Shown piece by piece: positions 34,210-64,000 of a DNA stretch of 64,000 bases. The stretch is from Flectonema sp. DT1601. Its lineage: Eukaryota. Under the pieces are notes generated by a model. It had not been told where the DNA came from, made no database searches, and saw only the letters and a list, made by a program, of their open reading frames with translations. The translations under genes and the position numbers were made by a program. The stretch lies in the NCBI GenBank assembly GCA_964019425.1, contig OZ025800.1, positions 744,001-808,000 of the forward strand, given 5' to 3'. Every line of letters starts with the position of its first letter. The first letter of the stretch is position 1.

Positions 34210-36256
34210 TTCCAGTTTCTGGAAGACAAAAAAAATAAAATAAAAAACTCTATCACGTATCATTATCACTATGTTAACTTAAAAATAATTATCAATTTCA
34301 AGGCAATCCGCCACTGAGGTACACTTTCCTCTTTTTTTTTTTTTTTTTAAAAATCTTTTTTTTTTTGTTGTTTTTTTTTTTTTCCCTTCGAAACTTTGAG
34401 TGGTCTTTACCCACGCATAAGCATGCCAATATTCGAATTAGATTCTCTTTTTAAAAAAAAATAAATAAAGACTCCCTGTAATGGAGAAAGAAAAAAATTA
34501 AGGCAATAAAATGATCTAAGTAAGGGACCGCACACGGGGACGGCACAAGGTCCTCCTAGCAGAGTCAAAAACAATAAATAAAAAGAAACGTGTTTTAGGG
34601 AAGTTCGATCCTATCATTGTTGCTGAATTAGTAAAACAACACAATAATATGAAGGCTTTATATTGATCCTTCCTCTGGAGGATGCTTTGCTTGTCTCGAG
34701 CACTGGATGAAATAAGCTCAACACCCACATCATCATTCTGCTTCAGCATGATTGTTACAGGTGTCTTCATACTTTGCAGATCTCAGTGTATTTTCCCTCT
34801 CCACAGACATGTTTCGTGCGAAAGAGAATTATGGCAACGCACAAAGTCAGGCGCCGATTCCATCTTTCTTATATTAAAAAGAATCCTCTATTTTTTATTT
34901 TTTGTTTTATTTTTTTGTTTTTTGTTTTTTTTGCTTGAAGAATATCTAAGTGTGAGATTGCTTTGAAAAAAAAGAGGGAAAAAAAATGAAATAAAATAAA
35001 ATAAAACATTAGCTGGAGAGAAGCCATCACCATAAAAACAGAAAAGCGAGAAAATTCTGCTTCGCAACCAGCGTTTGCAGTCATCGGTAAATTCAGTGTC
35101 TGTCTCTCAGGGCACAAGTGTATTGTATTTGGGAAGGTGAATATCTACGGATTTCTCCCCTTTTCTTTTTGTTTCTTCCAAATGGTTCGCCAAAACGTAC
35201 TTATTAGTTTCTTTTTCATTTTTTTTATTCCCTTCCCAGTAGAATACAAGCACAACACCGGCTTATCACACGCCATGTGGGTTATTTTTTTGCTTGCATG
35301 CGGCAGCATACTCCACTGACGCAGGACTCCACGTGGTTCACTTTTAAGAGAGGGACATAAACTATAGGAATTATACGCATGTGAAAAAGATAAAAAAAGG
35401 GTAGTCACGAAACACAGATAAAATAGTTACGCTACGTTCGTAACGGTAGGACACCCAACGTCGTTATCTCAATTTTTTTTTTTTTTTTTAGTTTTCGGAA
35501 TGAAATGAACACGCATAACGCTTTCACATATAGTTGTGTACAGAGGACGGAAAAAAAAAAAAAATTGCGGCTGCTGCTGAACGGTTGAAAGTGGAATCAA
35601 CCAATCGATTATTGAATCTAAACTTTTGAACAAAAAAGAAAGAAAAAAAAAAAACCCTCTCAACAGTATCGTACCTTTTTTTTCTTTTTTTTTCCCTTTC
35701 TTTTTTTTTTTTTTTTTTTTGATTGAAAAAAAAAATAATTCTTCGTCAGCTTTCGAAGAACAGATCATCTCGACTATAGTCGTAGAATCATTACAGTTTT
35801 TTTTTTAGTTTTATTCAATAGAAAAAAGAAAAAAGAAACTGGTAAAGTAGCTCAATGGGACAAAAAAAAAAGAAATCTAATTAAATTAACAGAGTCGCAG
35901 TTGATGCGAGTTTCTGTGAAAAAAAAAACCCTCACCAGCAGTCACATTTGTATTTTTTTTTGTTCGTTTTTTTTTTTTTTTTTTTCCCCTATTTCCAACG
36001 CCTTTCGTTTTTTTTCGTTCTTTTGTTTTGTAATTTGCACCTATTCCACACAAATAGGAAAATGACGTTCGTTAGCGTAGTTACCCACGCCGAATCCCGT
36101 CATAGTACAAACCAACAAAAAAGGTTATCAAAGAAAAAAAAAGAGAAAAAAGAAAAAAGAAGAAAAAAACGATTTAATTTTAAATGAAAAAAAAAAAAAA
36201 AAAAAAAAGAGAAACTTAAATCTTCGAAATAGGGGAAATATATAAACGAAATAATG

Positions 36257-39200
36257 CTACGGGACCCTTCTTGGAATACGAGAAGAGGGTAAGCCTTGTG
36301 AATAATCGTTCGAGGTTTTCACAGGAGGAGAAGAGTGGATAAAGTTCGGTGATCCAACCGGTGAAGCGTCCTCGTGTCCGATATCAGAAATTTCATTGTG
36401 GTGTATTGGTAGTATTACTCCTTTTGTTTTAAGCATTAATAATTTATGAATTGAATTCCTCTTCAAACGATTATCACAGAGAATTGAAAGATCACTCGTA
36501 TATCCCTGAGAAGCTATTTGAAGAACACATCCGTCGACTTGACGAATCTTTTGAATTTTTTCATAAATGATCTCCTTAATAGGCTCAACAGGAGCAGGGC
36601 CAAGAGAGGTTTGAGCATGCTGTGATGAAGCAGTACGTCCACCAGCAGGACTAGGCGCACGCCTATGAGTTGACTGATGATGAATTGATGCCCCAATCGA
36701 TTGCTGCTTCATAGCATCAGCATTAAACACTAATAAACATGTTGATGTAAATCTTAAGCAAATCGGAGTTCGACTTTGTCTTGATAATTGAATACCCTTA
36801 CTTCTAAACATGGCATCATCAAGCCTGAGTCCTCCATTGAATTCATAACCGTCTATGGAGTTCAATTCCTTTGAGTCCAGCATGTCTTCTTTTGACTTCT
36901 TTATCTTACTGAGCTTTTCATTTAACCTTGCTTCCTCTTGTTTTAATTGTTGTACTCTTGTAGTCGCCTCATTCTCTTCTGACTGGAGCTCCTTTATAGC
37001 TCTGTGTTTATCCCATGCTTCCCTTTCTAAGTCAGTGAGTCTTTCGTTGTATGACTCTTGTAAGTGTTTTGCGGCATGTTTCTTATCCTGTTGTTTATTA
37101 TATTATTAAGATCGTGTGAGGATGAAAGGAATATAAAAAGCTGTTTTACATACTCCGATCTGCGCCTTTAAAATATCTAGCTGTCTGTACTTATCGTTGA
37201 CTTCAGACTGAATGACTCGATGTTGTTGTTGTACTTCTTCGGAGTTCAACTTTTCAAGCATCTCCCTCCTGATGTTATTGCAGTAATTTATTTTTGTCTT
37301 ATTTTGAATTTAAAACTGAACAGCTGCTGTAAGTCAGCAGCATTGTTGTCTTAACTTTTCTAAATTAAAGTAGTCACCATACCTTTCTTGCTCAAGAAGC
37401 GTGTCCATCTTGCGCAGCTGGCGGGTAAGATCTTGACGTTGAGTTTCACCCTGTTATTGTTTATGTTAAGTAAGTAGAGTAAAGAAATATTAATAAGATT
37501 GATTGTTCAGTTTAGTTAATTTAGTTCATGTTCACTTCACAAGATAAAATAATACCTCAGAAAGACTTTTTGTGACGTCTGCGAGCTTGCGCGTCATTTC
37601 AGCGCGATCTTCATTCTTCGCTGTGGATTCAGAGAGTTGTTCGCGGATGGTTGCATTTGATGTTTGCAGAAGTCGTAGTCGATCTTGCGTTTGCTGCAAT
37701 TGCCTGAGAGTATCCGTCCGCTCCTGTTCTGCAGAGTGCTGCATATCACGTTTAGTAAATTCGTGTTCTGCCCTTTCTGTTAGTAACTCTCTTTTGAGGC
37801 GCTCGGCTTCACTGGTTCTGACGAGCATGAGTTCATTCTTCAAGTCTTCGTTGGCGTCGGATGACATCTTCCATTCTCCGTTGATTTGTCTTTCAAAAGT
37901 AAGTTGTTTACCCTGTTCAAGTTTACCTTGTAGCTCAGTTTGTTTCTTTCGCATGCGGGTTAACTCGTTTTCTAGTAGTTTGATGCGTTCGTCTTGTCGC
38001 TTTGTATCTTCACGCTGAAGCTGAATAGTTTGTTGTTGTTGGTGGAGTGCTGAAGTAGCTGAAGCTTCTTGTAAAGCGATGTCGTCCCTGGTTTGATTCA
38101 TTGTGGCTTGAACAAGTTCTGATGCTCTTCTTTGAATAGCTCTCGATACATCAGATCCAGCAACACCTGAAGTAGGAACACCATTACTACTCTTTGGATC
38201 TTGAATCCATGAAAATGGATTTCCTTCTACTTCGATGGAAAGTTTTCTTCCAGTAGAAGCTAGCGGATTATTTAATACAAATGAAGGATGCTCTCCGAAC
38301 TGGAGCTCGCACCTCGACGGTAGTTGCACTGATCCCGATGACGGGTTCATTAGATTTCCATTTAATTTAACATCACCAAGTGGTAATAAACTTATTCTCT
38401 CACCCGCTACCTGAAATACAGCATACGGCTGAGTTGCACCATCGTCTTGTTGAGGGGAAAGGCCAGTGAGTTTCACAGAGTGGATTGAAGAGTTTTCAAA
38501 AGGAAGTGTTGAGGGGTCAGGCCAAGGGACTGCAACTTTACCAGCAGAAGCGTCATCCCAACATGAAAGTAAGTGTTGGTACTCAAAACCTTGTCCTACC
38601 TCTCTTGGGGTATTAGACTGTGACTGTGGATGACTACCTGTAGTCCTGTCAGTGCTACTTCTTCTCATCTTACCAAAAGTTGATAAAGATACTCCAAGAA
38701 CTGAACTAGATCGTAACTTTGCTGGGTGTTGTACAGCCAATGTGTTTGAGGCATTTGCTGCTGCAGGTTCTTCGTCGTCTTCGCCTTCACTCTGCTCATG
38801 CTCAATTTGAATGTAGCCGCCCTCTCTGATATTTAAAATGTCTTCTTCTGCTGTGAGTTCTGCAGCCTCCGCGTTATTAATTCTTGTATTCGCTGCATCC
38901 AGTGCACGAGAGACGCTGTCGACTAACCTTCGAGGAGTTTTGTGTCTCGCAGAATCCTTTCTTCCTCCGAGACTTGCTGATGTTGATCGACGGCGATTTG
39001 TCTTCTTGCCGGTTGTGATTTCTGCAGATCGAACTCTCTGAACCTTTCGCTGCTCTTTTTCATGGTCTTCTTCTTTGAGAAGCGTGTGAGCCAAGTCTCT
39101 TCCCCACTCGTTGGGTTTTGATCCCCGCAGATGCTCAGCTACTTCAATATCTTTGAATCCAAAAGCAAGTGTTGGCTGCATGAATGATGGAGTTCTCTTG

Positions 39201-40714
39201 ACACCAAAACCTGATGCACGTCTCTCTAGAGAGTTGTCTTGTGTAGAACTTCTTTTACGCTGTTTACCACTCGTGCTATTCGATGGAGACTTTGGTGGCG
39301 AGTAGTTGGCATCATCAGCTGCGAGTGCAGCGTACGATGAGATTGAAGTAACAAAAGTAAATCCGTCCTTCAAAAACCAAATGAAAGGTTGATTATATGC
39401 TGTCTCTGTCTGTAAGAATGCAACACTTGCCCATAATGCTGATGGAGTACCTCTGTGACAAATAGCTGCTTCACCCTGTCCTGCTGCCGCTGTAATACTT
39501 CCATATAAGGATGATCCCTGCTGGAGTTGCTTATTAAGTTCTCGTATCTGAGAGCGAAGGTCTCTTATAATTCTTCTGTTTGACGCCCGTTTGTTAACTG
39601 AAGGAACGTTCTTAATCAATTTCACCCTTTCGGCGTAGCGAAGGGTAGTAAGAGTTTCTTCGTAATTTATCAAACACGGACTTAGTGTGGCCAACATGAC
39701 TGTTCTTGAATTTCCACCTAAATTATCCTTCAGCAACCAAGTAAGCGTACTGTCTCTATAAGGGACGTAGTTTCCATCAGTCTGAACTGACGGGTCATTG
39801 ATGTCGGCAAGGCGCTTAATTACCATACCCAGAGAAGTTAAACTTTTATTGATATTAATTCCTTCCTTTAGTGTGTCTCCCTCAGTACCAGCTTTGTTGG
39901 TACGTTCACTTCCTGCTAAGTCGACGAGGTTCACGCGACTGATCCATTCGGTTGAGTCACCGGTCTTCTTATCAAACTCACTTTTTGTTATAGTTAAACA
40001 AAATACTGCATGGGATCTTGATGAACGGTCGTTCATCTTAGTACGAGAAGTATGTCTCGTTTTGTTACCTAATCTCATGAGTTCCGCAACTTGTAGATAA
40101 TGTGATACCTCAATGGCGCTTAAGTTTTCAACGTATGGTCCTGCCTTTGGATCCTCACGTGGCCTTAAGGAGTCATTAGTCGCAGGGTCTAACAGACAGT
40201 AGACTTTCTCATTATAAATTTCGTAGTAACTCATCTCTACTCTGAATGAGATCCGTTCTGCTTTTGAAACTTCCGAATTAATTTGATCAAACAACGCCTT
40301 ACACATTCTCGGTGTCAGCCCAGTACTTGCAATAAACCTCGCGTGGTCGCTGTGTGGTGAAGGGGGTCCCATCATCGTGTAAGTCTTCCCAGAAGATGTT
40401 TGTCCATAGGCGAATATGCAAGCATTGTATCCAGATAAGGCGTGTTTTAATTGTGCAGCAGCAACATCTTCATAGATTTTATTTTGAGAAGCGAAGTTCT
40501 TCTCATTGCTGTCACCAATCGACCAGTAGTTGTAATCAAAGTGAAACTTCTTCTTCGCTCCTGTCGCCGGATCGATTAGCGTCGTTGACCGTTCAGAGTA
40601 ATTCATCGCCAGAGTCAGTTGTCCGAGAGAACCACCACGATCTTCCTCCTGCGGGGTTAGTGGTCTCGCACGTACAGCCACAACGACATTTGTCGCGCCG
40701 AATGAGCTTGCCAT
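36257..40714 (-). CDS. Kinesin-3 (KIF1/Unc-104-like) motor with split FHA, coiled coil and C-terminal PH-like domain, 1390 aa, 4 exons
   Basis: P-loop FAYGQTSSGKT, switch I SSRSH, switch II LVDLAGSER, kinesin-3-type VPYRDSTLTWLLKDNLGGNSRT. Exons 40714-37556, 37450-37383, 37268-37154, 37087-36257 join in phase (4173 nt). Confidence 0.95.
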
Positions 40715-40992
40715 GTTGATGAGATGACACCCCCCGACGTGTATTACTGAGAAGAAATGATGTAAAATAAAAAATAAACTTCTCAACTAGAATGTGACCT
40801 GACGACATCATTATATTTTCACAATAGATCGCTGTTTACGAGGGAAGAAACAAAAAGCATTCGATACTTCAGAAGAGTTCGTTAAAAAGACTCATGCACA
40901 GCACGTGTAACAATTGCTTCGCTTCGTTTTGGTAAATATACGTCGATGAATATCAAAGTGTAAAGTAAGGGTAATAAATACATATTTTTTTT

Positions 40993-47955: not shown

Positions 47956-49878
47956 CTAGTCAGAATCAACATCCATGTCAGTTGGACCAGAGTTGTTGCT
48001 GGTCTCGTCTTCATCCGATTCTTCATCTTCTTCAACTTCTTCATCTGAATCTTCGAAGTCTTTGGATTTCTGTTTTTAATTTTTGTAATAACAAACAATA
48101 ACCTGATTCCTTTAAGAAGTACAATCACACACCCAATACTCATAAAACCCGTATGTCCATCTGTTATTACTTTCACAATCAACATTCTCATCATCGCTCA
48201 GGAGATCGATGTCTGCCATTTTGTCTTTCCAGTCCTCTCTTATCCACGATACTCTAAACTTTCCAGGTTTAATGACACTGTGGTTAGTGTTGATTGTTGA
48301 TAATTATTATTAGTAAGAATTTATTGTGTTTCTACATACTCTTTAACAACTGCCCATGCCCAAACATTTTCCACCCAGAGACTTAATTCGGTTCCTTCAC
48401 GGACACCACTTGCTCCGATTACTTCGCGTGTTGGACCGTCGAACTGTTTGTGTTTTTATTCTTTATAAGAAAGTTATGAGAGTCGGAAAACGGTTGTAAA
48501 CAATACATACAGAAGCCTCACTACAGTCATCACACATTTCATTGTTTTCATAAGAATGAGTAAATTGTTTTCGTGCTGTTTCAAAACTGATTGTTGTTCC
48601 TTTTGAAAGGCGATCTTTCATTTCGTTATACCTCCCAAAGAATGGAACTGTTATATTATATTCCTTATCATCGGATTTGTTTTGGTCCACGACGACAATT
48701 TCGTATGTTGAAGAGCACGTCATTGAGACGATGTGTTTGTCTTCAAGGCAATATACCATTTGGGGTATGTGTCGTCTTTCGCGCATATCGTAGTCCTTAC
48801 CTAACAAGGACTTACATTTAACACCCCAGTTCCAAACGGAACCGTCTTCTAATAGCATTGAGTGAAATTGTTTTCCTCCACAAACTTTTTTAATCTTTCC
48901 AACTGGAACTAATATGTCAGTAGGTGTCAAAGAGGTATCTGTTGATGATGCAGCAACACGACCCCAACCTCTTAGTACAGATCTCCCTTTGATGTCGGAT
49001 ATAACAAATGAGGCTTCTGGACCGCTGCCAAGTCGGAAGTTTGTTTCTTCAGATTCTTCGTTTATTTTTATTTCTGTTGGAGACTGCATAGTTCTGATAG
49101 TACCAGTTCCTAAACGGCCATACTCACCAAATCCTGAGGTGTAGATTTGTTTTCCAGATCTGACTATCACATGTTGCGGTCCAGCAGCTATTTCTTCTAC
49201 TTCAACTTCTAAATCGGTTTCAAAAGTTGGGATCTTAGTTGGTTTTGGGATCACACCATCTGGTGGAGGTGCTGCACAACATTGACCATCACCACCATAA
49301 CCCCAAACATAAAAATCACCTTCCTTATCTGTTGCATAAGATGTATTTCCGCTAGCAGTGATACTCGTTGCTTGACTCATCTTTACCGGTTGCGGTTCTA
49401 TTCTTAGCGGTCTGTTTAAAGCCATACCACATTGACCTTTACTATTACTTCCCCATGAAAATACTAATCCCAGATCTGTTCTTGCTAAGCAATGGTGAGC
49501 ACCGCATGCTATTTCTACAACACGTTTCTTGTCGAGTGCCTTGATTGGAATCCACTCGTAGGATTGTTCTAACTTTTTAGGTTCAACACCCAATTGACCA
49601 AAGGCATTACAACCCCATCCATACACTTTAGAGTTAGATCCTAAAATGAGGGTGTGGCGGTGTCCACTTACGATCTGTTTTGGTGTCGTTTTAAAATCGG
49701 AAAATCCCGGCAGGTGGACAGGAAAGTCCAACACCTGATCGGTTCGTGTTTCATTTCCCGGGTTAGAAATATTAACGTCCCCCCAAATATAAGTTTCATA
49801 TTCTGCTTCTTCAGAGTCGCTAACACTCGATGAGTCGCTGTCACTATCGCTATCTTCGGCCTTCCGTTTCCCAGGCAT
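47956..49878 (-). CDS. RCC1-repeat beta-propeller protein with C-terminal Trp-rich beta domain and acidic tail, 576 aa, 4 exons
   Basis: RCC1 repeats (VYGWGCNAFGQLG, IACGAHHCLA...VFSWGSNSKGQCG, GFGEYGRLG). N-terminal basic MPGKRK. Exons 49878-48511, 48443-48340, 48277-48133, 48069-47956 join in phase (1731 nt). Confidence 0.92.
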
Positions 49879-50041
49879 TGTTAATAAGTTATAACTGCTG
49901 AAGGGAACTTAATGTTATTATTTTTTTTTTTTCCCCCGCAAATCAGAATATTATAAAAAGTATCGATAACGAAGTCGCGTGTCGGATTGCATGATTGAGT
50001 TAATCACAACAACTAAACCCATTACAGAACTAAAAAAAAAA

Positions 50042-50104
<63 letters not shown>
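50042..50104. repeat. (AAT)21 microsatellite
   Basis: Perfect trinucleotide run. Confidence 0.95.
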
Positions 50105-50111
<7 letters not shown>

Positions 50112-52420
50112 CAAATGAACGAAAGAGCTAAAGCACGCAGACGTCTTTCGGGGAATCTTTGATTATAGACGGGTTCCTTTTTCGTTTTTTTCATCTCTTT
50201 TCTTTCTAGCAAACATAACACAACTAAAAAAAACCATAATAAATTTCGATAAAAAGCCCATAAAGCGACGCCAAGCGGCGAGGGAAGAACACAGAAGGAA
50301 GTTATCAGTCAGTTTTCACCGTCGAATTCTGAGCTCCTGAAACAGGATTGAATTTCCTAACTAAAAAAGCTCCTTCTCATGGGATGGAAAAAATGAAAAA
50401 ATAAGATCGCCATCCCTGACGCTAGAGAGCTAGACATCGGTGTCTTTTGAGATGTTTGTTGTCGCGTGTCACTCGCACTTATATAAACCTGGAAAAGGAA
50501 AACAAGACACAGGAAGTACCGATAAAATATGCTAGACGATCTTCTGCTGATATGTTCATCGCCAATCGTTTTGCTAAAATTGAAATTAAATAATTTCAAA
50601 AAAAAAAAATAAAAAAAATCGATGCCTCCCTTGTGATAATTTGTTTGTGCACTAAACCGGACTCAAATGCGGAGAAAAATTAAAAAAAATAAAATAACAC
50701 GAGTACGAAGTTAATTTGAATGTTAAAAAGCGGAAGAACAGCAATAAGAAGCTGACATCTATCGAACCACACTTTTGATCGCTTCTCGCGATATCAGTTG
50801 GGAGGAGAATAACGAACCGTACTGAGGAAGGAGAGAATGAAAAAAGGAGAAAAAAAAGCTTGCCTTCTAATTCATTGAAACAAACGAGTGTTACAAGAAA
50901 AAATCAAGCGAATACATATTTACGAAGAAAAACGGATAACCCAGAACAAAATCCACACCAAAAAGAACATAGTTTTCAGGGGTAAAATTGATATTTTTTG
51001 AGGTCAGAAGGATACCGTGAAGACACCCCCCTCTAATTCTAATATTTGTACTTTTAATACCTCATTCCGGAAAGTTGGTGGAAATTTCTTCCTACACAGG
51101 TTCGGGGAACGGGTCCCCAGTGACAACAATCCCTCCTCTTCCAAACTGGTAGAAAAAAGAAAAAAGAAACAATCCCGTTTTTTTTCTTAATCCAAAATCC
51201 TCGGTAGTGATATAACAGAAAAATATCCTAAAAAAACAACAGATGTAAGAATACTCAAAGGATCAGTGTGTTTTTGCTTCTAATTTTTTTCCCCCCCTTT
51301 TCCCCCCCCCCTTTTTTTTTTTTTTTTCTTAGAACCTTCTCACTCAGATAAGAAGTATCACTCTATTAACTAAAAAAATTAACTCTCCTCAATCAAACCG
51401 ATTGGTGATAAAAACAGAAAAAGAGTCCGACCTGAACAATACATTGCGACATCTCCAATCAGAAGTAACTTTTTTAATTCAAAATTAAAGTTCGCGTAAG
51501 GAAGGTCGTAGTTAGTTAGTTAGTCGTACATCAGACATGACATTCATTCAGTCAAAAAAAAAAAAAAAAAAAAGAGAGCACATTGATATACTCTATACGT
51601 ATTATAGACATTTTAACTAATATTTTGTTAAATTGTTTCGTCGCAAGAAAAAAAGAGGTAATATAGAACGAAGAAGAAAATAAAAATATAAAAAAAACAT
51701 GGGAAGGATCGCTCCGAGGTTGCTGCCTTTTTCAAAGCAATTATTTCTAGCTCAAGAAACGGAAATTATGATCAGTCAACCTTAATCTGATTTGCTCTTG
51801 TTTTCTCATTATCAATCTCGCGAACAAAAAAAGGGTTTAAAAAAAAGAGATTAAAAAGAATAGAACAACCAATGTTAGTTCCAATATCGTTTTATCTTAT
51901 CTTTGTAGTGATTTTCTGTTTGCGCTGTCGGCAATCAGACTGAGAGATAATTAATAGTTCATTCTGATGAGTTTTAACAAAAGAATCGATCAACATAAAA
52001 ACAACACTAAGTAATAAGCATAGCAGTTTTTTTTTTTTTTTTTTCTTCTTTTTTTTTTTTTTAGACTAGTTACACAGCCAATTAAATGGACTTAATTTTT
52101 GGTAAGAGATATATCTGTCGCGAACAAGAATTAAGAGGTTTCCGAATGCCAAGAAATACCGCAAGCTGGAAATAAAGGTAAGGAGATACCGTGTGCAGGA
52201 TCCTATCCTGCCACGTAAACAGTGAACTAAAAGTAGGGTTTAGGTGTGAAAATTTAGGTGTTAAAATTAATTAAATCAACCACTGGGTTGGCCCACAGAT
52301 GATGCCTCATACAGCTAGCCATTCTTATTTTATAATGAAACGATGGATTGAATTTAATGAAAACTGATGTTGACAATCCCTCCTTTGTAATTTTACATTT
52401 CCCATCAATATCACTTGAAG

Positions 52421-55400
52421 CTATTCCTTATCAGAACTAGACTTTACAAGTGGAGCAAGCTCTCTTGCTCGTTGATTAGCTGGTGAAAGAGATCCCTCTG
52501 AGGGTTGGGAACTCTGTCGTAATGGAGGGAGAGGAGATCTTAATGGAAGAGGTACTTGTTGATCATCACCGTCATCGTCATGAGGTGGTTCAACTGTAAG
52601 AAGAGTCAGTGTATTCGTCTTTACTGCTGAGACAGCTAAGTTAGATTCCACAACAGTATTTGACAGTCCAATCGTTTCATCGAAATCCTCTTCGTCCGAC
52701 GTAGTATCAATAGACTTCGCTGTTTGTGGATCTAAACCACCTAGCGACCTACTCATCTCTAATTCTTCTCTCACAGTCACATCAAGAGGGTTCTTAACAC
52801 TTGGAGGCAATACAGGCATTCTTATACTGTTCGCAGTCAGTGTTGGTCTCCTCAGTGAAGGTTGAGTTGTCTAGTAATTGTTAATTTAAAAAAGATCATT
52901 ACATTCCAAACACACAAATAATAAATACATACAACTCTACGAGACTCCATCCTCCTACCAATGTATCTTGAGTATCTGTCATCAGCAATTTCTAAGACGG
53001 CCTGTTTTTATATTATTACTCACCTTGACCTTGTCGATGATGTTTAATTGAAAGAAAAGGTACGTTTAAAAAAAGAAAACAAAAAAAGGGAAACATATTC
53101 CGTCTTATCGACCAGAAGACGTTGTCGAGTCTGGTACTCGGAAAACTTGTTTAATTTTTTCCCGTTTGAGAATTCAGAAACGTGCAGCGTCTTTGCGAAG
53201 TATTCTCAAAAGGTTTACGACAACAGCACACCTTCCTAAACCCAGCAGATAACAAGGGATTGCTCTTTACTTTCCAAAGGGGAAAAGCATTATTATTTTC
53301 ATTAAGCGTAACAAGCCCCTACTTTACACCCTTATGGGTACAAGTATGATAACCAAATAAATAAAAACACAAACCTGTAAGCAATGAGGGTAATTATCAA
53401 CCGCCCAACTAAACCCACGCTGGTCTAAAACGTATACCTGACAATAAGTCTTTGCTGTGATGGTATATGGTGATGGAATGCCAAATAGTAAGGGAAGCTC
53501 ACCAAAGAACGCTCCCTCACTTAAGACAGAAGTTGAAGAATGAGACATTACAACACTACCTCTTGTGATCATATAGAAGAATGATGCAGGTTCACCATGA
53601 GTGATGATTACAGAATTAGGTGTGAATGCTTGAAGACGAAGTTTAGAAACAACGTCTGAAATAAAAAGATCATTTGCCTCATTATAAAGCATGGGAACAG
53701 ATTCTAACACATGAGCGTTCAAATGATACGACAGAGTTGATCTGAGATCTGCTGGGAGTGGCCAAGATAAAGCATCAAAGTCAGAACCAGTGTGATTCCC
53801 ATCAAGTAAGAAGTCATACTGACTAACGTGATATGTTCTTGTTGATCCCCACAAGAATCTAACGTATCCGATTACTTCTGCTCGGTACTGTGCTGGAAGT
53901 TTTCGTTCAACAAGAAAGATCTTTAGCTGCTCAACTAGTCGCTCATATTCTTTTTGATTAGGATTTGTAGAATCAAGTAAAACAGCAACATAAGCAATGA
54001 CGGTTGCCCAGACGGCAACACCTGCAAGTTGAGCTACCATGACCACTAGTGTCTGGGGATCACTCTGCGGCCAACGACAACCGTATCCCGACATTGCTCG
54101 TATTGCCCAATCAAAACAAGTTGTATATCTGTATAACAAATCCTTATCCTCAAAGGTGTTACTATCTAATTGAAAATATCTCAAATACTGATCACCATTA
54201 CCCTCCTCATCAATGTTTGATGTCCATAATATCCAATGTAATGCAGCAGCTGACATGTGAAGAATAAAGAACACTCCTAGTAATAGCTTTACGGCTTGGA
54301 CTCTAATTGGGGATATTTGTGACATGTGTCTAGCAACAAATGCGGTGAATAACTGATTAAATGATAACATGTTCAGTAGTCGATTGGCGCGAAAGGGAGG
54401 ATCCCAAATCATGTTAGCATCCCAAGCAAATAGAGCAGCAAGAAATTCTATCGGAAAACACGCTAGCACTGACACAGCAAATGCAACCGTTTTGTAGTAG
54501 TGTGGAGTACTTCGAAGGGTTGTTGCAATTGATATCCAGTAGACTGAAACATCTGCAACCCATTGGAGCACTGCCATAAATATCGAATATGGCAAATCAA
54601 ACCCAATATGTAAAGGAATATTAACACAATTAAATACTAACACTGCTATCTTTAGGGTATTCCATATATCTTTGTGAAGCAATCGAGAAGCTGCTCGTTT
54701 ATCATCTTTCTCTTGTTGTTCACTTCTTGTTACTAATGTTAACCTCCGTAGACGAACTTCCTTTCTCTTATCGAGGTTGGTTGACGCGCTGTTAAATTCA
54801 CCAATTGTTTGAAGCATTCCAGCGGTGTTGTCGTCATCCACTAATTCAACTAACTGAGCAAGTCTTCCATCTTTCCATTCTTCCATACTGGAGACGGGAA
54901 GTTTTTGTAGTGCGACAGCGAATATAGACTGCCTGAATTGATATAAATGTTCTGTACTGCTCTTAAAGTCGCTCCTCGGATGTGGTCCAATTCCCTGGAA
55001 TAATCCTCGACTGCGAAGCATTTCACCTGCTGAGACTGCCATCGTTTCAGTGATGTCAAAGCAGTCGACTAACCAAGCAACAACATCAGCCCCCACAAAT
55101 ATATTATCAACTTTGCTCATACAACCTGTTCGTTTCGAATGTAAGAAATGTTTTGATACGTGATTGCTGAAAACAGCAGCGAATCTTTCCAGTCCGGTTT
55201 CAGCTTTTTCTGCTGCTTTTTCAGCAGCTTTCCAGGCGTCTTCATCTACAATCTGTTGAGCAGGGCTAAATAAATTAGATGAAGATGATACCATTGTCAT
55301 TACAGGATCAGCTGCACTAAACACGTCGCGTGATTTCCTTCTTGCTGATGGGATGGCTGCCCTAATCAATTCAGCTAAGTTGCTATTTTCAGACTTTAAA

Positions 55401-57241
55401 GTTGCAGCAATAGATGGCCTGGGACCATGTCTAAAGGTAGGCATCGCGTCTGCGGGCTGAATGCAAGTGTCCGATTGATTGAGAGCGTCTTTAGTTCTTC
55501 CTGATAAGACGTTGTTTAAATGCTCCAAAAGCCATTTCATTGGCACTCCAGCTGGGGGACTCTCGCTCATGGACTCAGCGATTGCAACGGCGCCCTCATG
55601 CTCGCGAGCATTGACTGCGGAATTGATATCGAGTAATGGTTCTATTCTGGCATCCGCAGTTAAAACATAAACAGTTTTATGTGGACGTGGATTTGGAACA
55701 CCCTGAGGTTTTAATCCACCCTTCTCAGGCACAACTACATCAACAAGAGGAATAGCCCGAAGCCCACTTGGAGAACCATTCGGAATAGGAGATAAACAAG
55801 GTTCCCTATTTTGATTTGCCTGACCGGGTACTTCTAATGGATTGAATGATAAGACCTCAGCTCCTATTTGTCTTCCAAAAAGAGCCAAGTTTCTTGCAAT
55901 GTCACGCTGTGTTGATATAATACCGTGTACTAACGCACTCCTTCCTCTGACTCTACTCATTCCAGTAAGACAATCACCTGTTGATATACCAACACTCCAT
56001 GAGGGTTTTCTTTCAGTAATACTGCTGCTGTTGTGAGGTGCTTTGAACATTTGAACTAAACTTGAACAGAATGAAAGAATTCTTATATTCAATTCCTTGC
56101 CGCCAACCCACCAGACGTTGCAGCTGTTCGATCCAGCCCACTCTAGTCGGGCTCCGTATGCGTGACACATGTCCGCTATGCTCTCAAATGTCGTTGAGTT
56201 TTCAAAAGAAATATCTAACCTTTCTTTATAATCAACAACCACAGTTAAGAATGTACAGGTGTGACGCTTCCATGGTTCGAAGGTGACATTTCGTGAAAGG
56301 TTTGGAGTACCATGAGGATCGGTACTACTTCTCTCTGATGCTTTATGTGAAAGTGTTCGAAGAGGAAGCGGAGTAGTATCAGATCGATCCCTTGAGAAGG
56401 TTCTAGATGAAGGAGATGGTATTGTAAAGTTAACTCTTGCTCTTGCAGTCGCCCCCTCACTTAAGTGAGAACCAGTAGAGACACAAAGTGGGTCGACTTC
56501 TGGTGCACTCAAATGAAGTGGTGGCATTCCTGGTGATAATACAGCAGGGAGTGGTCCAGCTTCAGTACCTGATGGCTCTGCGAATATAAAAGCTCTTCCT
56601 GATCTTCTTCCAACAGCTGGCGCTGAACACATCTCTCCATCTTCATCTTCTCCTATAGGGGTAACAAATTCAGTGTTGAGTCGATCACATTCACCGAAAT
56701 CATTTATAGCTAGTTGGAGGTGTTCAATAATTCGAGTTCTGGCACATTGAGCACCAAAACCAACGCACTTAATTTCATGTGGTATAAGTGGATTATATAT
56801 CTCCATACAGGTGTCAGGGAGTTCAGGTATGAACCCCCAAGCTGCTTCACGACCAATTGATACCAAATGATGAGATAAATCACGTAGAGGAATAGAAAGG
56901 GTTTTATCAATAAATAATTTCAACAAAAAGCACAACGACAACGACAGAACTAAAGCCACAGCAACAGCTGGCCCAACCATACTAACATCTGGTGAGGAAG
57001 AACACGAAGACGATAGTTGTGAGCAAAGAAGATCAGCCTCATTAAGTCCTAATAAGGTACTACTCATGACTTTCTCAACACACGAAAATTGATTATAATT
57101 TATACTTCCTCGTGAGATCTGCTCAATCCCGAGAGCTGCTCCGATTGTCACTAACGAGATTCCAACCTGCGCAGCGAATATAATTCGCGAGGACTGATAT
57201 CCACGAATGTCCTCCATCTGAACATCCTCCTCTGAGAACAT
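52421..57241 (-). CDS. Fusion protein: 2TM + HAMP-like + degenerate class III nucleotide cyclase + DEP + 6TM cation channel + cyclic-nucleotide-binding domain, 1461 aa, 3 exons
   Basis: Exons 57241-53375, 53001-52933, 52870-52421 are all phase 0. DEP FVGADVVAWL...AVSAGEMLRSRGLF...LYQF. S4-like FRANRLL. Pore FDWAIRAMSGYG. C-linker LPAQYRAEVIGY...LPADLR. CNBD IITHGE...GAFFGELPLL. Confidence 0.9.
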
Positions 57242-58308
57242 TCAACAACTCTATTGGAATGTCATTTAACGGAAATGTTATTTTCTGAAAGAAAAAGAAA
57301 ATAAATATCACCATCTTGTATTGCACTGAATAGGATCAGGTTCGTGACTTTATACTTTCGATCAATTTTCTTTTTTTTTGTTGCGGGCCTGATGGAAAGA
57401 ACAAAACAAGAAAAAGCATAGAATAAAGTTGGCAATGAGATACTACCGTAAGTGGGGATGGTGGTGACCAAACAGTATTGTAGCTGTAATTCTATTTCCA
57501 GTCTTTGTGTAGAAGACTTTGAAAAAAGATAATTTCTCAGTACGACGTGTGAATTCTCTTTTTGTGGTTTAAAGTGCTCAAACTTTCAAACCAAAAAAAA
57601 AAAAAAAAAAAAAAAAGAATTTAAATATAAAAAAAAAAAGAAACTAATAATAATAACGTTCTACGATCAAAAACAAATAAAATAAAAATTGACCTCTCAA
57701 AATCCTTTTTTATATTCCTAACGGAGGAAAGAAACTAGGATTTAAACTTACTATAAAAAAATGTTAGAGCTTTCCTATACTACTAGAATACAATAAGCTT
57801 AACCAAAAACTCTTTTTTTTTTTCGCCTCCTCATATTTATAAGTAACTAAAAACGTAACTGAATGCGGCGTTGAATGCTGAGCAAAGAGAATAGAAGATG
57901 AACAAACTAAACAAAAAAAAATTAATTTTACGAATCAGAGGCAACTGTTCACTGATGGCAGTTAATCTCAAAGCCGCGAACGGCGATAGAATAATGTGCC
58001 AAATTCTAACAAAAAAAATTGAAAAAAAAAAAAAAAAAAAAAAAGAACTCATCGTGAAAATATATTTCCGGGAAATGAACCAAAATTTGAGAGTTCAAAG
58101 AAACGTAACCCAAAAACGCGCGGAGGGAAAAAAAGAAAACAAAACAAAGTAGGGGACTAATATTAAAAAAAATGAAGGCTGGAGAACAAACAAAAACATA
58201 AGAAAATAAAAGCGCTAGAGGATAGTAGCAACGCTGATTACATGAACGCAGGTGCTGCCCGCATACGATTGAATAAACATCCTTATAACGTTAGAAAGGA
58301 TAATTCAA

Positions 58309-59214
58309 CTACGAGAAAATGGCTATAGAATTCCTTATAGTCATATTACAAATAGGGCATTCTGTGATTGTCTTACTGCAGAGAGTGCATGCAGCCCAAT
58401 GACCACATGGTGAGAATGCTATCTCACGAGGGTTGTCATTACACACTGCACACTTTGGTTTACAAACATCATCCGATGAGGGTGATTTTAAATCTAATTG
58501 ACTTGTCTCAGATAATAAGATTTCATCCGCATCTTCAATTTTCCGTTGCTGTTCTTGCAAATCAGATTCTTCCTTTGCTCGTCTTGCCATCTGAATACGA
58601 CAAACCTCTCTGTGACTGGTATAAAAAGTTGGGTGAATCTGAAGTTTACAAACTGCACATTTATTCACCGCCTTACCCGATACGTATAAATGTTCCCTTA
58701 CTTGCTCTCGACACATTGGACAGGTTGTTATTTTCGAAGCACACCTTTTACAACAAGACCAATGGCCACATGGTACGAATGCTACTGAACGCTGTTTCGT
58801 AAGACAAATAACACATTCATCTCCTTCTTCAAAAGATGACTCAGAAGATGATGCGACTGACGGTGTTTGTTGTCTGGCCTGCTGTTGAATTCGGCATACC
58901 TCAGTGTGACCTTCAAAAAGGGTCGGGTGGATGTATTCTAAACAGATCTGACACTGCATTGGTCTATTTAATAAATATTCCAATCCAGAACTAAATGCAG
59001 CGATGTTATTCATATCTATCGCAACTGATTGACCGTTCAAAGCTGCTTCAAGATTTAATGCCCCAACTGAAACAGATACACCTGGCTGATCAGATCTTGG
59101 CTGATCAGTTCCCCGTTGAGGAGATACTTTCCGGGTAATATGAAGAGCAAAAGCCATCACTGCAAGTGCCGCTGCGATTAAGCCTATAAACAGTGCATAC
59201 ATCATCATCATCAT
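58309..59214 (-). CDS. Membrane-anchored double RING-HC E3 ligase-like protein, about 301 aa
   Basis: N-terminal TM. RINGs CVICLTKQRSVAFVPCGHWSCCKRCASKITTCPMCR and CAVCNDNPREIAFSPCGHWAACTLCSKTITECPICN. Each is preceded by a C-x2-C-x11-H-x3-C finger. Confidence 0.92.
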   Translation of the reverse strand: MMMMMYALFIGLIAAALAVMAFALHITRKVSPQRGTDQPRSDQPGVSVSVGALNLEAALNGQSVAIDMNNIAAFSSGLEYLLNRPMQCQICLEYIHPTLFEGHTEVCRIQQQARQQTPSVASSSESSFEEGDECVICLTKQRSVAFVPCGHWSCCKRCASKITTCPMCREQVREHLYVSGKAVNKCAVCKLQIHPTFYTSHREVCRIQMARRAKEESDLQEQQRKIEDADEILLSETSQLDLKSPSSDDVCKPKCAVCNDNPREIAFSPCGHWAACTLCSKTITECPICNMTIRNSIAIFS

Positions 59215-59591
59215 TGATGGAGTACTGTTTTCTTTTTGAAGATATAATATTACAACTACTGTACAAAGGAACACCTATCATTATAAACACCACACTGCTT
59301 CCCAACTATTAACATGCTTCTTATTCCCCTGTAAGTAAGGAAGTATCAAAAGTAACATATGAACCATATTATTAAATGCGCCACACTGCTGTCGTCAGGC
59401 TGGATAGATGGGCCGAGCAGCGGCGGTCGCCATAAACTAACAAATTGATAAGACTGAAGACTTGACTGACAAGTTAAGTCTTTCGAGCGGATGCCTCAAA
59501 TGGAAAAGAAAATTGTTATTTCAAAGAAAATCGAAAGGCACAACCCTCAGACAGGGAATACATAAACCCAAACAGAAAAGACGTAATTTCT

Positions 59592-60918
59592 TTAGGTCGT
59601 TTCATTTATAGTTGCGTCTGATGGCGCTGCTCCGCCTGAAAGGTCGAGGTCTCCAACAGCTACTGCCTCGTGTGTTTGAGTTGTGTTATAACTTTGGCAC
59701 TCAGGACATTTCATTGCAATGAAGTGAAGTGGAACGGTACTCTTACGCAAACAATCATTACAAATGATTGTTGCTTTATGAGATGCGAACTCTGCAGGCA
59801 TCGGATTCATTGCCACTTCTGTTGCTATCCGACTACCGCTTTCCGAATCTCGAGAGATAGTTTTCTTACAAAGTGGACATCCCAGCTGTCCAGAATCTGT
59901 TAACTTCTTTTTGCATACATCCTGTTAGGTTTTATGTAATTATATTTTCTTTAAATAACTGAGATCAGTATTGCGCATATCATAAAGTAAAAAAAAGATA
60001 AAAAAGTTTAAAACACACATGAATGAAGTGACCGCAGTTCATTAAATCGACTTTCTCGTAGCTGCTGTGGAGATCTTCCAAACAAACAGGGCACGAATTT
60101 AAACCTCCCTGATTGCATTTATGATTTTGTAGTTTAGTTGACCAACACGCGTTACATTTATCGCAGTGAGAATAGTCTGATTTTCCAATTCCTCCGTCGC
60201 CTTTTCTGCACATTCCGCATTGTGCGCAATGCCAAACGAGGTCTTTAGGAGCTCCTTCAGGAATGTTCATCCAGAGATGGCAAGGTTCACAGTAGTAGTC
60301 TGCAAAAGTAATTTTACACTTGCAGCATGACGCTGCTGCTGGTTGATATTCATCACAGTCACCACACTGAATGTGAGTTACCTTAAACCTATCTAAATCA
60401 TGATCTTCCTCAGCATCATGACAAAATCTACATGCAGCTAAAGATGTACACGTTGAACACTGAATAAGACATTTACGTGAGTAGTGTTGGCATCCGTTGT
60501 ACGGCTTTTCAAATGTTCTCGGCAGCTTTGGAACATCAGGTTTCGCAAAGGCGCTTACAGTAGCCCTGACATCATCACCGTCTTCTATGGAAACCTTTTC
60601 AAGAATTTCGAGATCTGCTGCTGCTGCTAAAACATTACTTCTTCCTAAGTGATGTTCAATTCTTAATCTTAATGCTTCAATTAAATAACTTTCTTCATCA
60701 ACTGTTCTGACAGATGTTGTACTCAGAGGTAATATAACTTTCGTAAGTGTTTCACAAGAGGCATCCCACTTGGCAGCAGCTTGTTGGCACTTCGCAATAC
60801 CAATTAGATTGTGAACTCTTTGCTCTCTAGTGATGTGCTCTCTAGCCAGTCCCGTCATGTAGCCAGCAATAGCGGCATCGATGTCTCCTCTTGAGCGAAG
60901 TTCGTCGGGAGATGTCAT
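59592..60918 (-). CDS. RCHY1: Pirh2/RCHY1-like E3 ligase (CHY, CTCHY, RING-H2, zinc ribbon) with N-terminal TPR-like region, 409 aa, 2 exons
   Basis: GCQHYSRKC...CRFCHD; ICNDC...HFIAMKCPECQSYNT. Intron 60018-59922 restores the RING CPVC...CGHFIH|DVC...CPLC. Confidence 0.93.
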
Positions 60919-61105
60919 ATTTTATATTAGGTTCTGTTTGCACAAAAAGTCTAAACATAATCCAACGAATATCTGAATTTCTCTAAACTATCCTTCCAGT
61001 TCAGTCATATTTGAATATTGTCTTTTGTTATGAAGAATATTAATATCTCAGAATGACTATAACTTTCTTGAATCATAAAGTATACAGTAAGTGTCTAGCG
61101 AGTTA

Positions 61106-62621: not shown

Positions 62622-63644
62622 CTAAATAGGCCTCATGTCTTGGTTGATTTGTTTCTGAAGGTGGACATCTGGAGAATGAGATTTGATACCAAGACGTTGT
62701 CGTACAACGTAACCAACATTACTATTCACAGAAGGGTTTGCTTTGAAATAGTGATAAAGCATAAATCCTGAAAGAGATATTAAGAATCCAATTACCTCAG
62801 CAGGAGGAACAACTTCCTTGTACCTAATAATTCCTACAAAGATTAGAGCAACATTACGTACCATTCCGAGAACTTTCAAAGTCAACGAAGACGTTACTTT
62901 TACTACTTGAAAAGTTAATAAGTTAATAGCAAGCCCCAGAAGAGCAGCAGCTAAGAACATGTATGGGTGATTAAGTATGGTAAGATGATCACCTTTTTGA
63001 AGAAGAGTTTTCCACTCTGAAGCTGCCGCAGCAATCATTAAAAACAACACCCCAGGAGGTGCTAATACATACTGTCCTTCAATAACAGAAAGACTCTTAT
63101 TTTGAAGAAGGTATTGGGTAAGTACTAAATTAATTGCTTCAGTCGTACTGGCTCCAGCGAATAACAGCAGTCCCTTAACATTAGTACTGGGGTCAGCTCC
63201 AGAGGTTAGTACTGTTCCTGCGCATATTAACATAACACTTAAGATTGTTCCTCCCTTTGGGTTTTCAACTTTTAGAACCGCTCCAGTCACCAGTACTACT
63301 ACAGGTGAGAATGCTTTCAACATTTGAATAAATCCCAAGTTCAATTCCATGTAAGCAGCATTTCCGAACGTCAATGTCGCAGCTTTGCATATTCCAACTG
63401 GTAAACAAGTTTTCAACCAAACTGATTTTGTTAATAATTCTTTTGTCTCTTCTCTCATAGGTGTGATACCGCTTCGGATCAGTCCCCATGAGGTTAGACT
63501 TGCCGCTACCATTCCTAATGCACTTAAGGTAATTGGATAACCAAAGCCCATCTCTTGCATGATATGCTTGTTTAGAATTATCAAGGACGGTCCTGTCAAA
63601 AGATAGACCGTGCAGAGTACCAGTTGTGAGGTCACGATGTTCAT
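62622..63644 (-). CDS. Triose-phosphate/nucleotide-sugar transporter family (TPT/SLC35E-like), 340 aa
   Basis: Multiple TM segments. LIILNKHI...FGYPITL, GNAAYMEL...FIQMLKAFSP, VTSSLTLKVLGMVRN. Confidence 0.93.
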   Translation of the reverse strand: MNIVTSQLVLCTVYLLTGPSLIILNKHIMQEMGFGYPITLSALGMVAASLTSWGLIRSGITPMREETKELLTKSVWLKTCLPVGICKAATLTFGNAAYMELNLGFIQMLKAFSPVVVLVTGAVLKVENPKGGTILSVMLICAGTVLTSGADPSTNVKGLLLFAGASTTEAINLVLTQYLLQNKSLSVIEGQYVLAPPGVLFLMIAAAASEWKTLLQKGDHLTILNHPYMFLAAALLGLAINLLTFQVVKVTSSLTLKVLGMVRNVALIFVGIIRYKEVVPPAEVIGFLISLSGFMLYHYFKANPSVNSNVGYVVRQRLGIKSHSPDVHLQKQINQDMRPI

Positions 63645-64000
63645 TTTATAGTATGTGACCCTTTATATTAAGATAAGTAAATCTCACCAACGTCAACAAC
63701 AACAACTTATCTCGAAAAAACATAATTAAACCTGATTGGTAATAATAATAATTATTATAATAATAAAGACAATTTTTAACCTTTTTTTTTTGGTCACAAT
63801 TAATATAATTTCTAGGGATAGTTTTTTTTTTTTTGAGCGTTCTCAGACACGCTTAAATTGTTGCACAAGTCTCTTTTAGAATAAATAACACCTCCTAAGG
63901 AGATGTCGTAATTTTACCGACGAAGCCTGTCGCTCACAACCTTTACCAGGTCTTCGAGATTGCCAGCATGCTCGATTGCTGATAAGGCCATTATCTCTGC

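Follow-up and report, generated by a model that had tools for sequence, protein, structure and literature searches.

Ion channels equipped with the cyclic nucleotide-binding domain (CNBD) are the textbook case of gating by a second messenger. The KCNH channels (EAG, ERG and ELK) and the plant Shaker-type channels (GORK, SKOR and KAT) carry a CNBD-like domain, known as the CNBHD, which is not known to bind cyclic nucleotide monophosphates (cNMP), the gating of these channels being independent of cyclic nucleotides. In the KCNH channels, an N-terminal PAS domain of the same protein binds and regulates the CNBHD, as described in the available part of the source (PMC7515569). The only natural fusions of a channel with a class III cyclase that are described in the accessible portions of the literature that we have searched are the alveolate adenylyl cyclase/K+-channel proteins (Paramecium, Plasmodium ACalpha), where a channel-like module of six transmembrane (TM) helices is located N-terminally and an active class III cyclase C-terminally, with neither a CNBD nor a DEP domain in the available account (PMC3283738); the synthetic PAC-K, according to the available part of its description, combines a light-activated cyclase and the CNBD channel SthK in a compact, two-component stimulus-to-current device, which needs real cAMP synthesis and binding (PMC8993538). 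Here, we have analysed a gene that is located on the minus strand, at positions 57241-52421 of a window of 64,000 nucleotides from the diplonemid Flectonema sp. DT1601 (assembly GCA_964019425.1, contig OZ025800.1, positions 744,001 to 808,000), and whose product joins two TM helices, a cyclase-like domain, a DEP domain and a CNBD-family channel in a single chain; all positions below refer to this window.

The comparison of the window protein with these systems places its C-terminal part next to SthK, HCN1-4 and CNGA1-3: the succession of S5, pore, S6, C-linker and CNBD is collinear with theirs, the pore has a GYG as in SthK and HCN, and helix S4 is weakly charged. Unlike these channels, the protein has an N-terminal arm of ~855 residues with two additional TM helices, the cyclase-like domain and the DEP domain; the arginine of its CNBD that binds the phosphate is replaced by serine, and its filter, MSGYGC, lacks the threonine. 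Compared with the alveolate fusions, the window protein has its parts in the opposite order, its cyclase-like domain is degenerate and its channel belongs to the CNBD family, and we have found no sequence relationship between them and the window protein; relative to PAC-K, the shared feature is the pairing of a cyclase with a CNBD channel. The window protein is a novel form of CNBD channel, which is real, conserved and lineage-restricted, and the loss of the CNBD arginine and the MSGYGC filter are newly noted here. The reading that we favour, with a little more confidence than an even chance would give, is that of a diplonemid-specific, CNBD-family cation channel subunit, the gating of which would be regulated by the N-terminal arm through contacts between domains, and not by a cyclic nucleotide.

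The single polypeptide of 1,461 residues is a genuine fusion and not a join made by the gene model. Its first exon is an uninterrupted stretch of 3867 nt, exactly as the preliminary description of this DNA had stated; the open frame begins with the ATG at 57241, directly preceded by an in-frame TGA, and continues to 53324 (1305 aa), but exon 1 proper stops at 53375 and the final 16 residues of the frame are intron read-through. The preliminary description had missed a 69-nt micro-exon that carries the start of the CNBD's C-helix, and that we have located by comparison with the homologue from Diplonema papillatum (P0004; E 7e-4, exactly after HCLQ). The spliced coding sequence of 4386 nt is translated into 1461 residues with a single, terminal stop. 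Since the full-length transcript product of Flectonema neradi (P0012, 1472 aa) crosses and matches both splice junctions (...HCFQAVLEIADERYSRYIGKRMESRRATALPSLRRPTL...), the single-chain fusion is real: the junction at intron 1, HCLQ|AVLEI, corresponds to HCFQAVLEI in P0012, the two proteins are identical at 1108 of 1441 aligned columns (77%; 97 of 166 in exons 2 and 3 alone), and the motif PSLRRPTL of exon 3 is common to P0012 and P0004. The parts occur in the identical order in the full-length transcript product of Diplonema ambulator (P0013) and in the genome protein P0004. That the fusion is an artefact of assembly or annotation, or that two genes have been taken as one, is hardly credible: the only point in its favour is the general caution that long multi-domain open frames deserve, and against it stand the uninterrupted 3867-nt frame, the identical order of parts in seven proteins from both transcriptomes and genomes, and the full-length transcripts of two related species. 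The preliminary description was thus right that the fusion is not an artefact, the layout being kept in four diplonemid species.

Shorter isoforms from F. neradi (P0002) and D. ambulator (P0003) diverge from the full-length products after ...NIPLHIG and ...HCLQ, respectively, each continuing with a valine, and look like retained introns. The position of intron 1 seems to be conserved, because the point of divergence in P0003 coincides with intron 1 of the window gene; at the place that is equivalent to the point of divergence in P0002, the window gene has no intron. A polypyrimidine tract followed by AG is found at 57285-57300, 44 nt upstream of the ATG and with the AG at 57285-57286, as a candidate trans-splice acceptor for the spliced leader.

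After F. neradi, the closest named homologues are likewise diplonemid, i.e. D. ambulator (42% identity) and D. papillatum (34%; KAJ9445075.1, automatically annotated as “Cyclic nucleotide-gated cation channel subunit A”). The profile of the cyclase-like domain, run with HMMER against 1.84 billion representative proteins (E up to 0.001), has returned six proteins: isoforms from F. neradi and D. ambulator, a fragment from D. papillatum, and three proteins of 1180-1283 residues from genome assemblies (P0015, P0016 and P0017), where the cyclase-like domain, the DEP domain and the CNBD follow each other as in the window protein; in P0016, the DEP domain has no Pfam match and cNMP_binding is under the cut-off. 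These three proteins represent a second, divergent subfamily (18-26% identity) with the same cyclase-like/DEP/channel/CNBD layout, almost no extracellular loop, a near-canonical spacing in the HAMP-like segment, and a pore with GYA or GYS where the window protein has GYG. Conservation is reported below either for seven members (the window protein, F. neradi, D. ambulator, D. papillatum and P0015-P0017) or for the four species that remain when P0015-P0017 are omitted.

No relatives have been found in a scan of prokaryote genome contigs, nor in scans of metagenome contigs with the cyclase-like profile and the whole-protein alignment, and no kinetoplastid or euglenid members are among the results of the family search; beyond the family, word-based protein searches have given only Phytophthora CNBD channels, which have no DEP domain, and one dinoflagellate PKA-R. 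The family is small and lineage-restricted, comprising four diplonemid species and three further proteins with the same layout. The preliminary description knew of no characterised protein with this architecture, and we have found no description of it in the open-access papers searched: none deals with diplonemids, cyclic nucleotides and ion channels, nor with D. papillatum and cyclic nucleotide-gated channels; the search for pseudo-cyclases gave nothing relevant, the one for a DEP domain, a CNBD and a potassium channel gave only EPAC papers, and from the one for fusions of a cyclase with a channel in protists, nothing but the alveolate proteins emerged.

The C-terminal ~450 residues are, by their alignments, a CNBD-family channel with a pore domain of six TM helices, a C-linker and a CNBD. 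Among the solved-structure sequences, phmmer has found 153 at E up to 0.1, and the best 60 of the 153 all cover the channel/CNBD region: the best is SthK (8e-26), aligned over residues 1037-1287 (S6, C-linker and CNBD), with HCN1 at ~1e-16, while CNGA1-3, TAX-4-type CNG channels and the plant channels GORK and SKOR (~1e-13) align from S1 onward (residue 860). The match to cNMP_binding reaches 51.5 bits (cut-off 27.5), and 40% of the columns of the C-linker are invariant among the four species. The preliminary description had read a 6TM channel, a C-linker and most of a CNBD in exon 1, and the collinearity with SthK, HCN and CNG channels bears this out.

The pore and the voltage-sensor region depart from the canonical pattern: the pore sequence is DWAIRAMSGYGCRWP, where the filter MSGYGC, without a threonine, differs from the Thr-x-Gly-Tyr-Gly of the K+-selective type, the HMMER alignment to SthK has a gap of two residues before the GYG, and S4 has only two arginines (FRANRLLN). 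Ion selectivity and voltage dependence are not readable from such an atypical filter and a two-arginine S4; a weakly selective cation pore is our guess.

In the CNBD, the ungapped HMMER alignment places FFGELPLLFGIPSPYTITA opposite FFGEMALILRAPRTATVRA of SthK, with PSPY opposite PRTA, such that the phosphate-binding arginine corresponds to Ser1257; this position is occupied by serine or asparagine in all seven members, within a conserved P-[SN]-P motif. According to the available part of the source, it is this arginine that neutralises the cyclic phosphate and forms hydrogen bonds with it (PMC10959531). The preliminary description had assigned to the CNBD the usual role of a cyclase effector, i.e. 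that of a reader of cyclic nucleotides, and the absence of the arginine throughout the family argues against this role; since the pocket is without its key arginine, gating by the attached domains of the protein itself, rather than by cAMP or cGMP, is likely.

The DEP domain, which the preliminary description had also placed upstream of the channel, is a Pfam match above the cut-off that spans positions 9-72 of the 72 of the profile; it is above the cut-off also in P0002, P0003, P0015 and P0017, and below it in P0004 (26.8 bits). Epac is the only well-known type of protein that unites a DEP domain with a CNBD, but it is a soluble exchange factor with the DEP domain beside a functional CNBD, whereas here the two are separated by the 6TM channel and the CNBD has no arginine.

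Between the hairpin of TM helices and the DEP domain, and preceded by a low-complexity linker of 136 residues, lies the segment that the preliminary description had taken for a class III cyclase-like fold (about 55660-56275). We consider it quite likely that residues 322-530 (55652-56278) constitute a diverged class III cyclase-homology domain, and four lines of evidence, each weak, agree on this. The first is given by language-model features: the ESM-Atlas look-up with residues 312-575 has returned 30 hits in three sets (best score 0.94, 176 shared features), with 22 hits in sets that contain PF00211 clusters and the remaining eight in a set without a common Pfam family, the top cluster of which is automatically named “guanylate cyclase domain-containing”. 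The second and third lines are structural, and start from two AlphaFold runs on the cyclase-like region with four-sequence alignments. Among the Foldseek matches listed, class III cyclases account for 23 of 36 with model 1 and for 32 of 41 with model 2 (best E 2.5e-3 and 4.3e-3, respectively, both weak), including Rv1625c, RhoGC, CyaB, Cya2, bacterial cyclases that are regulated by light, sGC and a cUMP synthase from a bacterium (7r65); GGDEF or Cas10 palm domains make up most of the other matches listed. VIA-align, which is independent of Foldseek and the note of which gives Z 7-8 as the usual range when a model has no true match, ranks the bacterial light-regulated adenylyl cyclase 5mbg first for model 1 (Z 8.8, root mean square deviation 3.4, 133 residues aligned), with Rv1625c at Z 8.7 (120 aligned), and generic ferredoxin-like folds at Z ~8 over only 73-88 residues; this line is concordant, yet not decisive.

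The fourth line is a profile-profile comparison with hhalign, where the comparison set comprised nine bona fide cyclase domains from the Sinorhizobium meliloti plasmid pSymA. The cyclase-like segment scores 17.2 globally and 21.4 locally against this set, and none of 65 column shuffles reaches either value; when the protein is tiled into ten segments, the three that score (E 4e-4 to 4e-3) all contain residues 330-470, the other seven being at E 0.34-0.9, and this pattern is unchanged with the seven family members, the range over all scoring segments being E 4e-4 to 5e-3. The aligned landmarks are strand beta1, the motif EW.G, which is opposite the strand of the second metal-binding aspartate, and GI..G, which is opposite GIh.d..G of the template. 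Against GGDEF, ACT and HAMP profiles, the segment does not score (E 0.15-0.9), the match of cyclase to GGDEF, at 1e-5, providing the scale.

Several results weigh against the assignment to the cyclases. The Pfam family Guanylate_cyc (PF00211) has no match in the window protein and three relatives at E up to 10, nor in P0014-P0017 at E up to 0.1; the four-member profile finds no cyclase among the sequences of solved structures in the PDB, with only chance-level values (E 0.6-1.1); and the hhalign probabilities for the cyclase match are only 2-15%. The AlphaFold models are both of low confidence, with a predicted local distance difference test (pLDDT) of 46.8 for model 1 and 44.0 for model 2, and therefore the fold matches rest on shaky coordinates. 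For model 2, VIA-align places generic ferredoxin-like folds first (Z 7.3-7.8), with no match at Z 8 and the cyclases at Z 6.4-7.2 (87-126 residues aligned, mostly 103-126). A rival reading is that residues 322-530 form a ferredoxin-like domain that is particular to the lineage and has no relation to the cyclases, which it would resemble through a common beta-alpha-beta-beta-alpha-beta arrangement: there is no match at the level of hidden Markov models, many ferredoxin-like folds reach Z 7-8 in VIA-align, above the cyclases for model 2, and both models are poor. We regard such an origin as unlikely, because the profile-profile score is specific for class III cyclases and is not obtained with GGDEF and ACT, which have the core fold in common with them, because cyclases align over 103-137 residues and the generic folds over 67-88, because the language-model features independently indicate cyclase clusters, and because the register of the alignment agrees with the cyclase landmarks. 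The cyclase-like fold of the preliminary description is thus retained as probable on four weak, concordant lines, although it is without a Pfam match and without a good model.

If the domain is derived from a cyclase, it is probably catalytically dead, judging from the residues at the aligned positions. The canonical positions include two aspartates that bind metal ions, a lysine or glutamate that defines the substrate, and an asparagine and an arginine that support the transition state. In the hhalign register, the window protein has a non-canonical residue at each of the six catalytic positions: the first metal aspartate corresponds to V335 (lysine, arginine or histidine in the other members), the second to N372 (threonine, alanine, aspartate or serine), the substrate-defining lysine to W368, which is invariant, the transition-state asparagine to D447 (asparagine in one member) and the transition-state arginine to N451 (glutamate or alanine). 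“Pseudo-cyclase”, the name given in the preliminary description, is in keeping with these replacements. The pattern of conservation indicates that the domain is nevertheless under constraint: 25 of the 149 columns of its core are invariant among the four species (the linkers on either side have 9 such columns in 136 and 9 in 95), and 11 columns are invariant in all seven proteins (W324, Y338, F352, E367, W368, G370, W378, W415, G427, A453 and L464). In the helical segment that follows it (residues 531-580), the four species have one and the same residue at 8 of 50 columns.

At the N-terminus, two TM helices surround a short loop with cysteines, as the preliminary description had noted: the loop comprises ~50 residues (39-92) with C54, C73 and C80. 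Its length amounts to ~7 residues in D. ambulator and to ~115 in D. papillatum, while P0015-P0017 have hardly any loop at all, and across the seven members it is conserved in neither length nor sequence; because of this, there is no conserved ligand-binding ectodomain, and the role of a “receptor”, proposed in the preliminary description, is unsupported.

The juxtamembrane segment that follows TM helix 2, which the preliminary description had called HAMP-like, has no match to the Pfam HAMP family (PF00672) within the limits given above for PF00211. Among 13 segments of the seven-member alignment that have been compared by hhalign with 22 HAMP domains from Escherichia coli K-12 and pSymA, it is the best (E 0.0019-0.0033; 0.015-0.72 for the other 11 segments), with the invariant proline of the family opposite the proline of HAMP and HEI opposite the acidic-Glu-Leu motif; a HAMP profile of two sequences has given no signal. 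The placement after TM helix 2 and the starting proline are kept in all seven members, and in the ESM-Atlas look-up with residues 86-200, a HAMP cluster is found at rank 4 (0.86), the best score (0.89) being to an unnamed cluster. The spacing between the proline and the glutamate, counted by eye, is 28-29 residues in E. coli HAMP (a single row, L015) and 29-30 in P0015 and P0017, but 39 in the window protein, 35 in D. ambulator and ~190 in D. papillatum; the connector is ~10 residues too long in the window protein and has an insert of ~150 residues in D. papillatum. Because this spacing exceeds that of HAMP, the segment can at best be called HAMP-like, its connector being expanded: the faint hhalign signal is in favour of the earlier name and the lack of a Pfam match is against it.

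The arrangement of the N-terminal arm resembles that of the bacterial TM-HAMP-cyclase enzymes, in which membrane helices and a juxtamembrane helix pair with a starting, conserved proline are followed by a cyclase-type domain; in the window protein, unlike these enzymes, the proline-to-glutamate spacing is longer, the 136-residue linker intervenes and catalysis appears to have been lost. Our bacterial comparator is an open frame of 866 residues with HAMP and a class III cyclase (S. meliloti pSymA, 308604-309827). This resemblance is one reason to regard the protein as a working cascade in one chain, as the preliminary description did when it spoke of a sensory cascade condensed into one polypeptide, where a stimulus at the TM hairpin and HAMP would turn on the cyclase and the cAMP or cGMP formed would open the protein's own CNBD: the order of TM helices, HAMP-like segment and cyclase-like domain is that of known sensor cyclases such as the pSymA frame, CNBD channels are effectors of cyclases, and engineered pairs of a cyclase and SthK function (PAC-K; available part of PMC8993538). 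We nonetheless hold a working cascade to be very improbable, since the six catalytic positions are without the needed residue in the window protein and vary among the members, the phosphate-binding arginine is absent from the CNBD of all seven members, and the extracellular loop is unconserved. With the catalytic residues and the CNBD arginine both lost, the supposed cascade is degenerate at either end, and the claim that the protein makes and then senses a cyclic nucleotide is not sustained.

In the reading that we favour, the subunits would tetramerise, as do those of all the relatives whose structures have been solved, and the CNBD without its arginine would serve as a gating ring of the CNBHD kind, independent of ligand or differently liganded, as in the KCNH and plant Shaker-type channels. 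Since two plus six TM helices are combined with the known topology of such channels, which have a cytoplasmic N-terminus, the whole stretch of 744 residues between TM helix 2 and S1 is expected to be cytoplasmic. The ~855-residue arm, mostly cytoplasmic on this expectation, would consist of a two-helix anchor, the dead, cyclase-derived domain and the DEP domain: the pseudo-cyclase would be tethered to the membrane through the hairpin and the HAMP-like helix pair, the DEP domain would lie at the membrane surface, and this N-terminal module (pseudo-cyclase and DEP) would tune the CNBD ring or the C-linker in the manner of the PAS/eag domain of KCNH. Unlike in KCNH, the N-terminal regulator would not be a PAS domain, and the cassette still has its Gly-Glu; we have found no motif for an intrinsic ligand. 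The earlier suggestion of a channel that is gated directly by a stimulus survives in one half, in that gating through the attached domains is still the best reading, and fails in the other, in that the part of a stimulus receptor is unsupported.

Three points speak against the favoured reading. The Pfam family Ion_trans has no match in any member (E up to 10; for P0014-P0017, E up to 0.1). That the N-terminal arm touches the CNBD is proposed purely by analogy. No other part of the protein is as conserved as the CNBD (42 of 99 columns invariant among the four species), which keeps the ribose-binding Gly-Glu, and because of this, the CNBD may still bind some ligand. This last point leads to another explanation, where the channel would be gated by a different ligand, i.e. 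an uncharged or other small molecule bound by the arginine-less CNBD, with the N-terminal arm serving only for targeting or assembly. A precedent exists in the kinetoplastid PKA of the TbPKAR type, which has lost this arginine and binds purine nucleosides, with the alanine after Gly-Glu-x replaced by glutamate; in the trypanosomatids, which are related Euglenozoa, cyclic nucleotide-binding (CNB) domains without the arginine bind inosine and guanosine with nanomolar affinity, according to the available part of the source (PMC10959531). The replacement of the arginine by a polar residue is shared with the TbPKAR-type CNB, but the replacement of the alanine by glutamate is not: the kinetoplastid hallmark, two positions after Gly-Glu, is proline or serine in all seven members (Pro1250 in the window protein), and the SPY/SPV motif resembles neither cassette. 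A pocket of the kinetoplastid nucleoside type has accordingly been rejected, since the family has not copied this solution, and we judge gating by a different ligand, with the conservation of the CNBD in its favour, to be rather unlikely overall.

A bolder form of the favoured reading, i.e. of gating by the attached domains, is also conceivable, although we think it improbable: the protein may be the relic of a cascade from cyclase to CNBD channel that was once complete in itself and has since been converted into a channel gated by a pseudoenzyme, where a membrane-tethered HAMP/dead-cyclase dimer and the DEP domain would move the arginine-less CNBD ring directly, and where the pocket of the pseudo-cyclase would sense the state of the membrane or of ATP/GTP, which would be converted to current without a second messenger. 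If this were true, it would be the first natural channel to use a cyclase fold as a gating ligand or sensor.

The features of the gene and of its surroundings are collected in Table 1. All 21 stop-to-stop frames of at least 200 residues in the window (1-64000) are located on the minus strand and form one directional gene cluster, as in Euglenozoa; by their Pfam matches, these frames encode ordinary eukaryotic proteins, for example kinesin, formin, RCC1 and kinases. Two pairs of frames on the same strand abut or overlap in different reading frames (12584-13615 with 13566-14573, and 27082-27993, a WD40 protein, with 27990-28787), and each pair is probably one gene that a short intron or a frameshift has divided (12584-14573 and 27082-28787). 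The gene is flanked by intergenic repeats: ~T36 at 52027-52062 and (AAT)x21 at 50042-50106 on one side, and ~A51 with an A-rich repeat of 23-28 nt at 57593-57655 on the other. The Rfam search of the window has given no match.

Table 1. Features of the gene and its neighbours, with positions in the window
Feature	Position	Strand	Remarks
Exon 1	57241-53375	minus	3867 nt, residues 1-1289; start agrees with the F. neradi product beginning MFSEEDV
Intron 1	53374-53002	minus	373 nt, GT-AG, GTTTGTGT...AAAAACAG; GT donor at 53374
Exon 2 (micro-exon)	53001-52933	minus	69 nt, 23 aa, AVLEIADDRYSRYIGRRMESRRV; end of CNBD (C-helix region)
Intron 2	52932-52871	minus	62 nt, GT-AG, GTATGTAT...ATTACTAG
Exon 3	52870-52421	minus	149 aa and stop; low-complexity C-terminal tail
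TM helix 1	57184-57128	minus	residues 20-38; Kyte-Doolittle 1.99 (19-residue window)
TM helix 2	56965-56909	minus	residues 93-111; Kyte-Doolittle 2.63
Juxtamembrane helical segment, HAMP-like	56908-56687	minus	residues 112-185; enlarged connector
Probable degenerate class III cyclase-homology (pseudo-cyclase) domain	56278-55652	minus	residues 322-530; weak, concordant evidence
Conserved helical segment after the cyclase-like domain	55651-55502	minus	residues 531-580; helices of model 1 at pLDDT 54-69
DEP domain	55129-54935	minus	residues 705-769; Pfam PF00610, 8.2e-09, 35.7 bits (cut-off 32.7)
Six-helix channel domain, S1-S6	54676-53972	minus	residues 856-1090
Pore filter GYG	54088-54080	minus	residues 1052-1054; motif AMSGYGCRWP
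C-linker	53971-53672	minus	residues 1091-1190; collinear with SthK and HCN
CNBD beta-roll, part in exon 1	53671-53375	minus	residues 1191-1289; Pfam PF00027 cNMP_binding, 1e-13
Equivalent of the phosphate-binding cassette	53506-53453	minus	FGELPLLFGIPSPYTITA; Gly-Glu kept, arginine position is Ser1257
Protein kinase	2812-3741	minus	Pfam
Dcp2/NUDIX	4595-5806	minus	Pfam
FH2 formin	7609-9945	minus	Pfam
CAP-Gly	32179-34278	minus	Pfam
Kinesin	37532-40786	minus	Pfam
RCC1	48463-49908	minus	Pfam
Double RING protein	58309-59274	minus	Pfam
CHY zinc finger	59980-60921	minus	Pfam
TPT transporter	62622-63662	minus	Pfam

Few heterotrophic protists in the ocean are as diverse and abundant as the diplonemids, and to our knowledge, almost nothing is known of their excitability and sensing; one of the species that has the gene, D. 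papillatum, is genetically tractable. A natural fusion of a cyclase fold with a CNBD channel is not described in the literature that we have searched, and its layout is the natural counterpart of the engineered optogenetic tools that combine a cyclase with a channel. The protein unites in one chain what would be a maker and a reader of cyclic nucleotides, both of which appear, from their aligned residues, to be devoid of their chemistry, and both of which are conserved across diplonemid genera; because both parts seem to have lost their chemistry and yet are conserved, the family may offer a clean test case for the reuse of a pseudo-enzyme and of a ligand-free CNBD as gating machinery.

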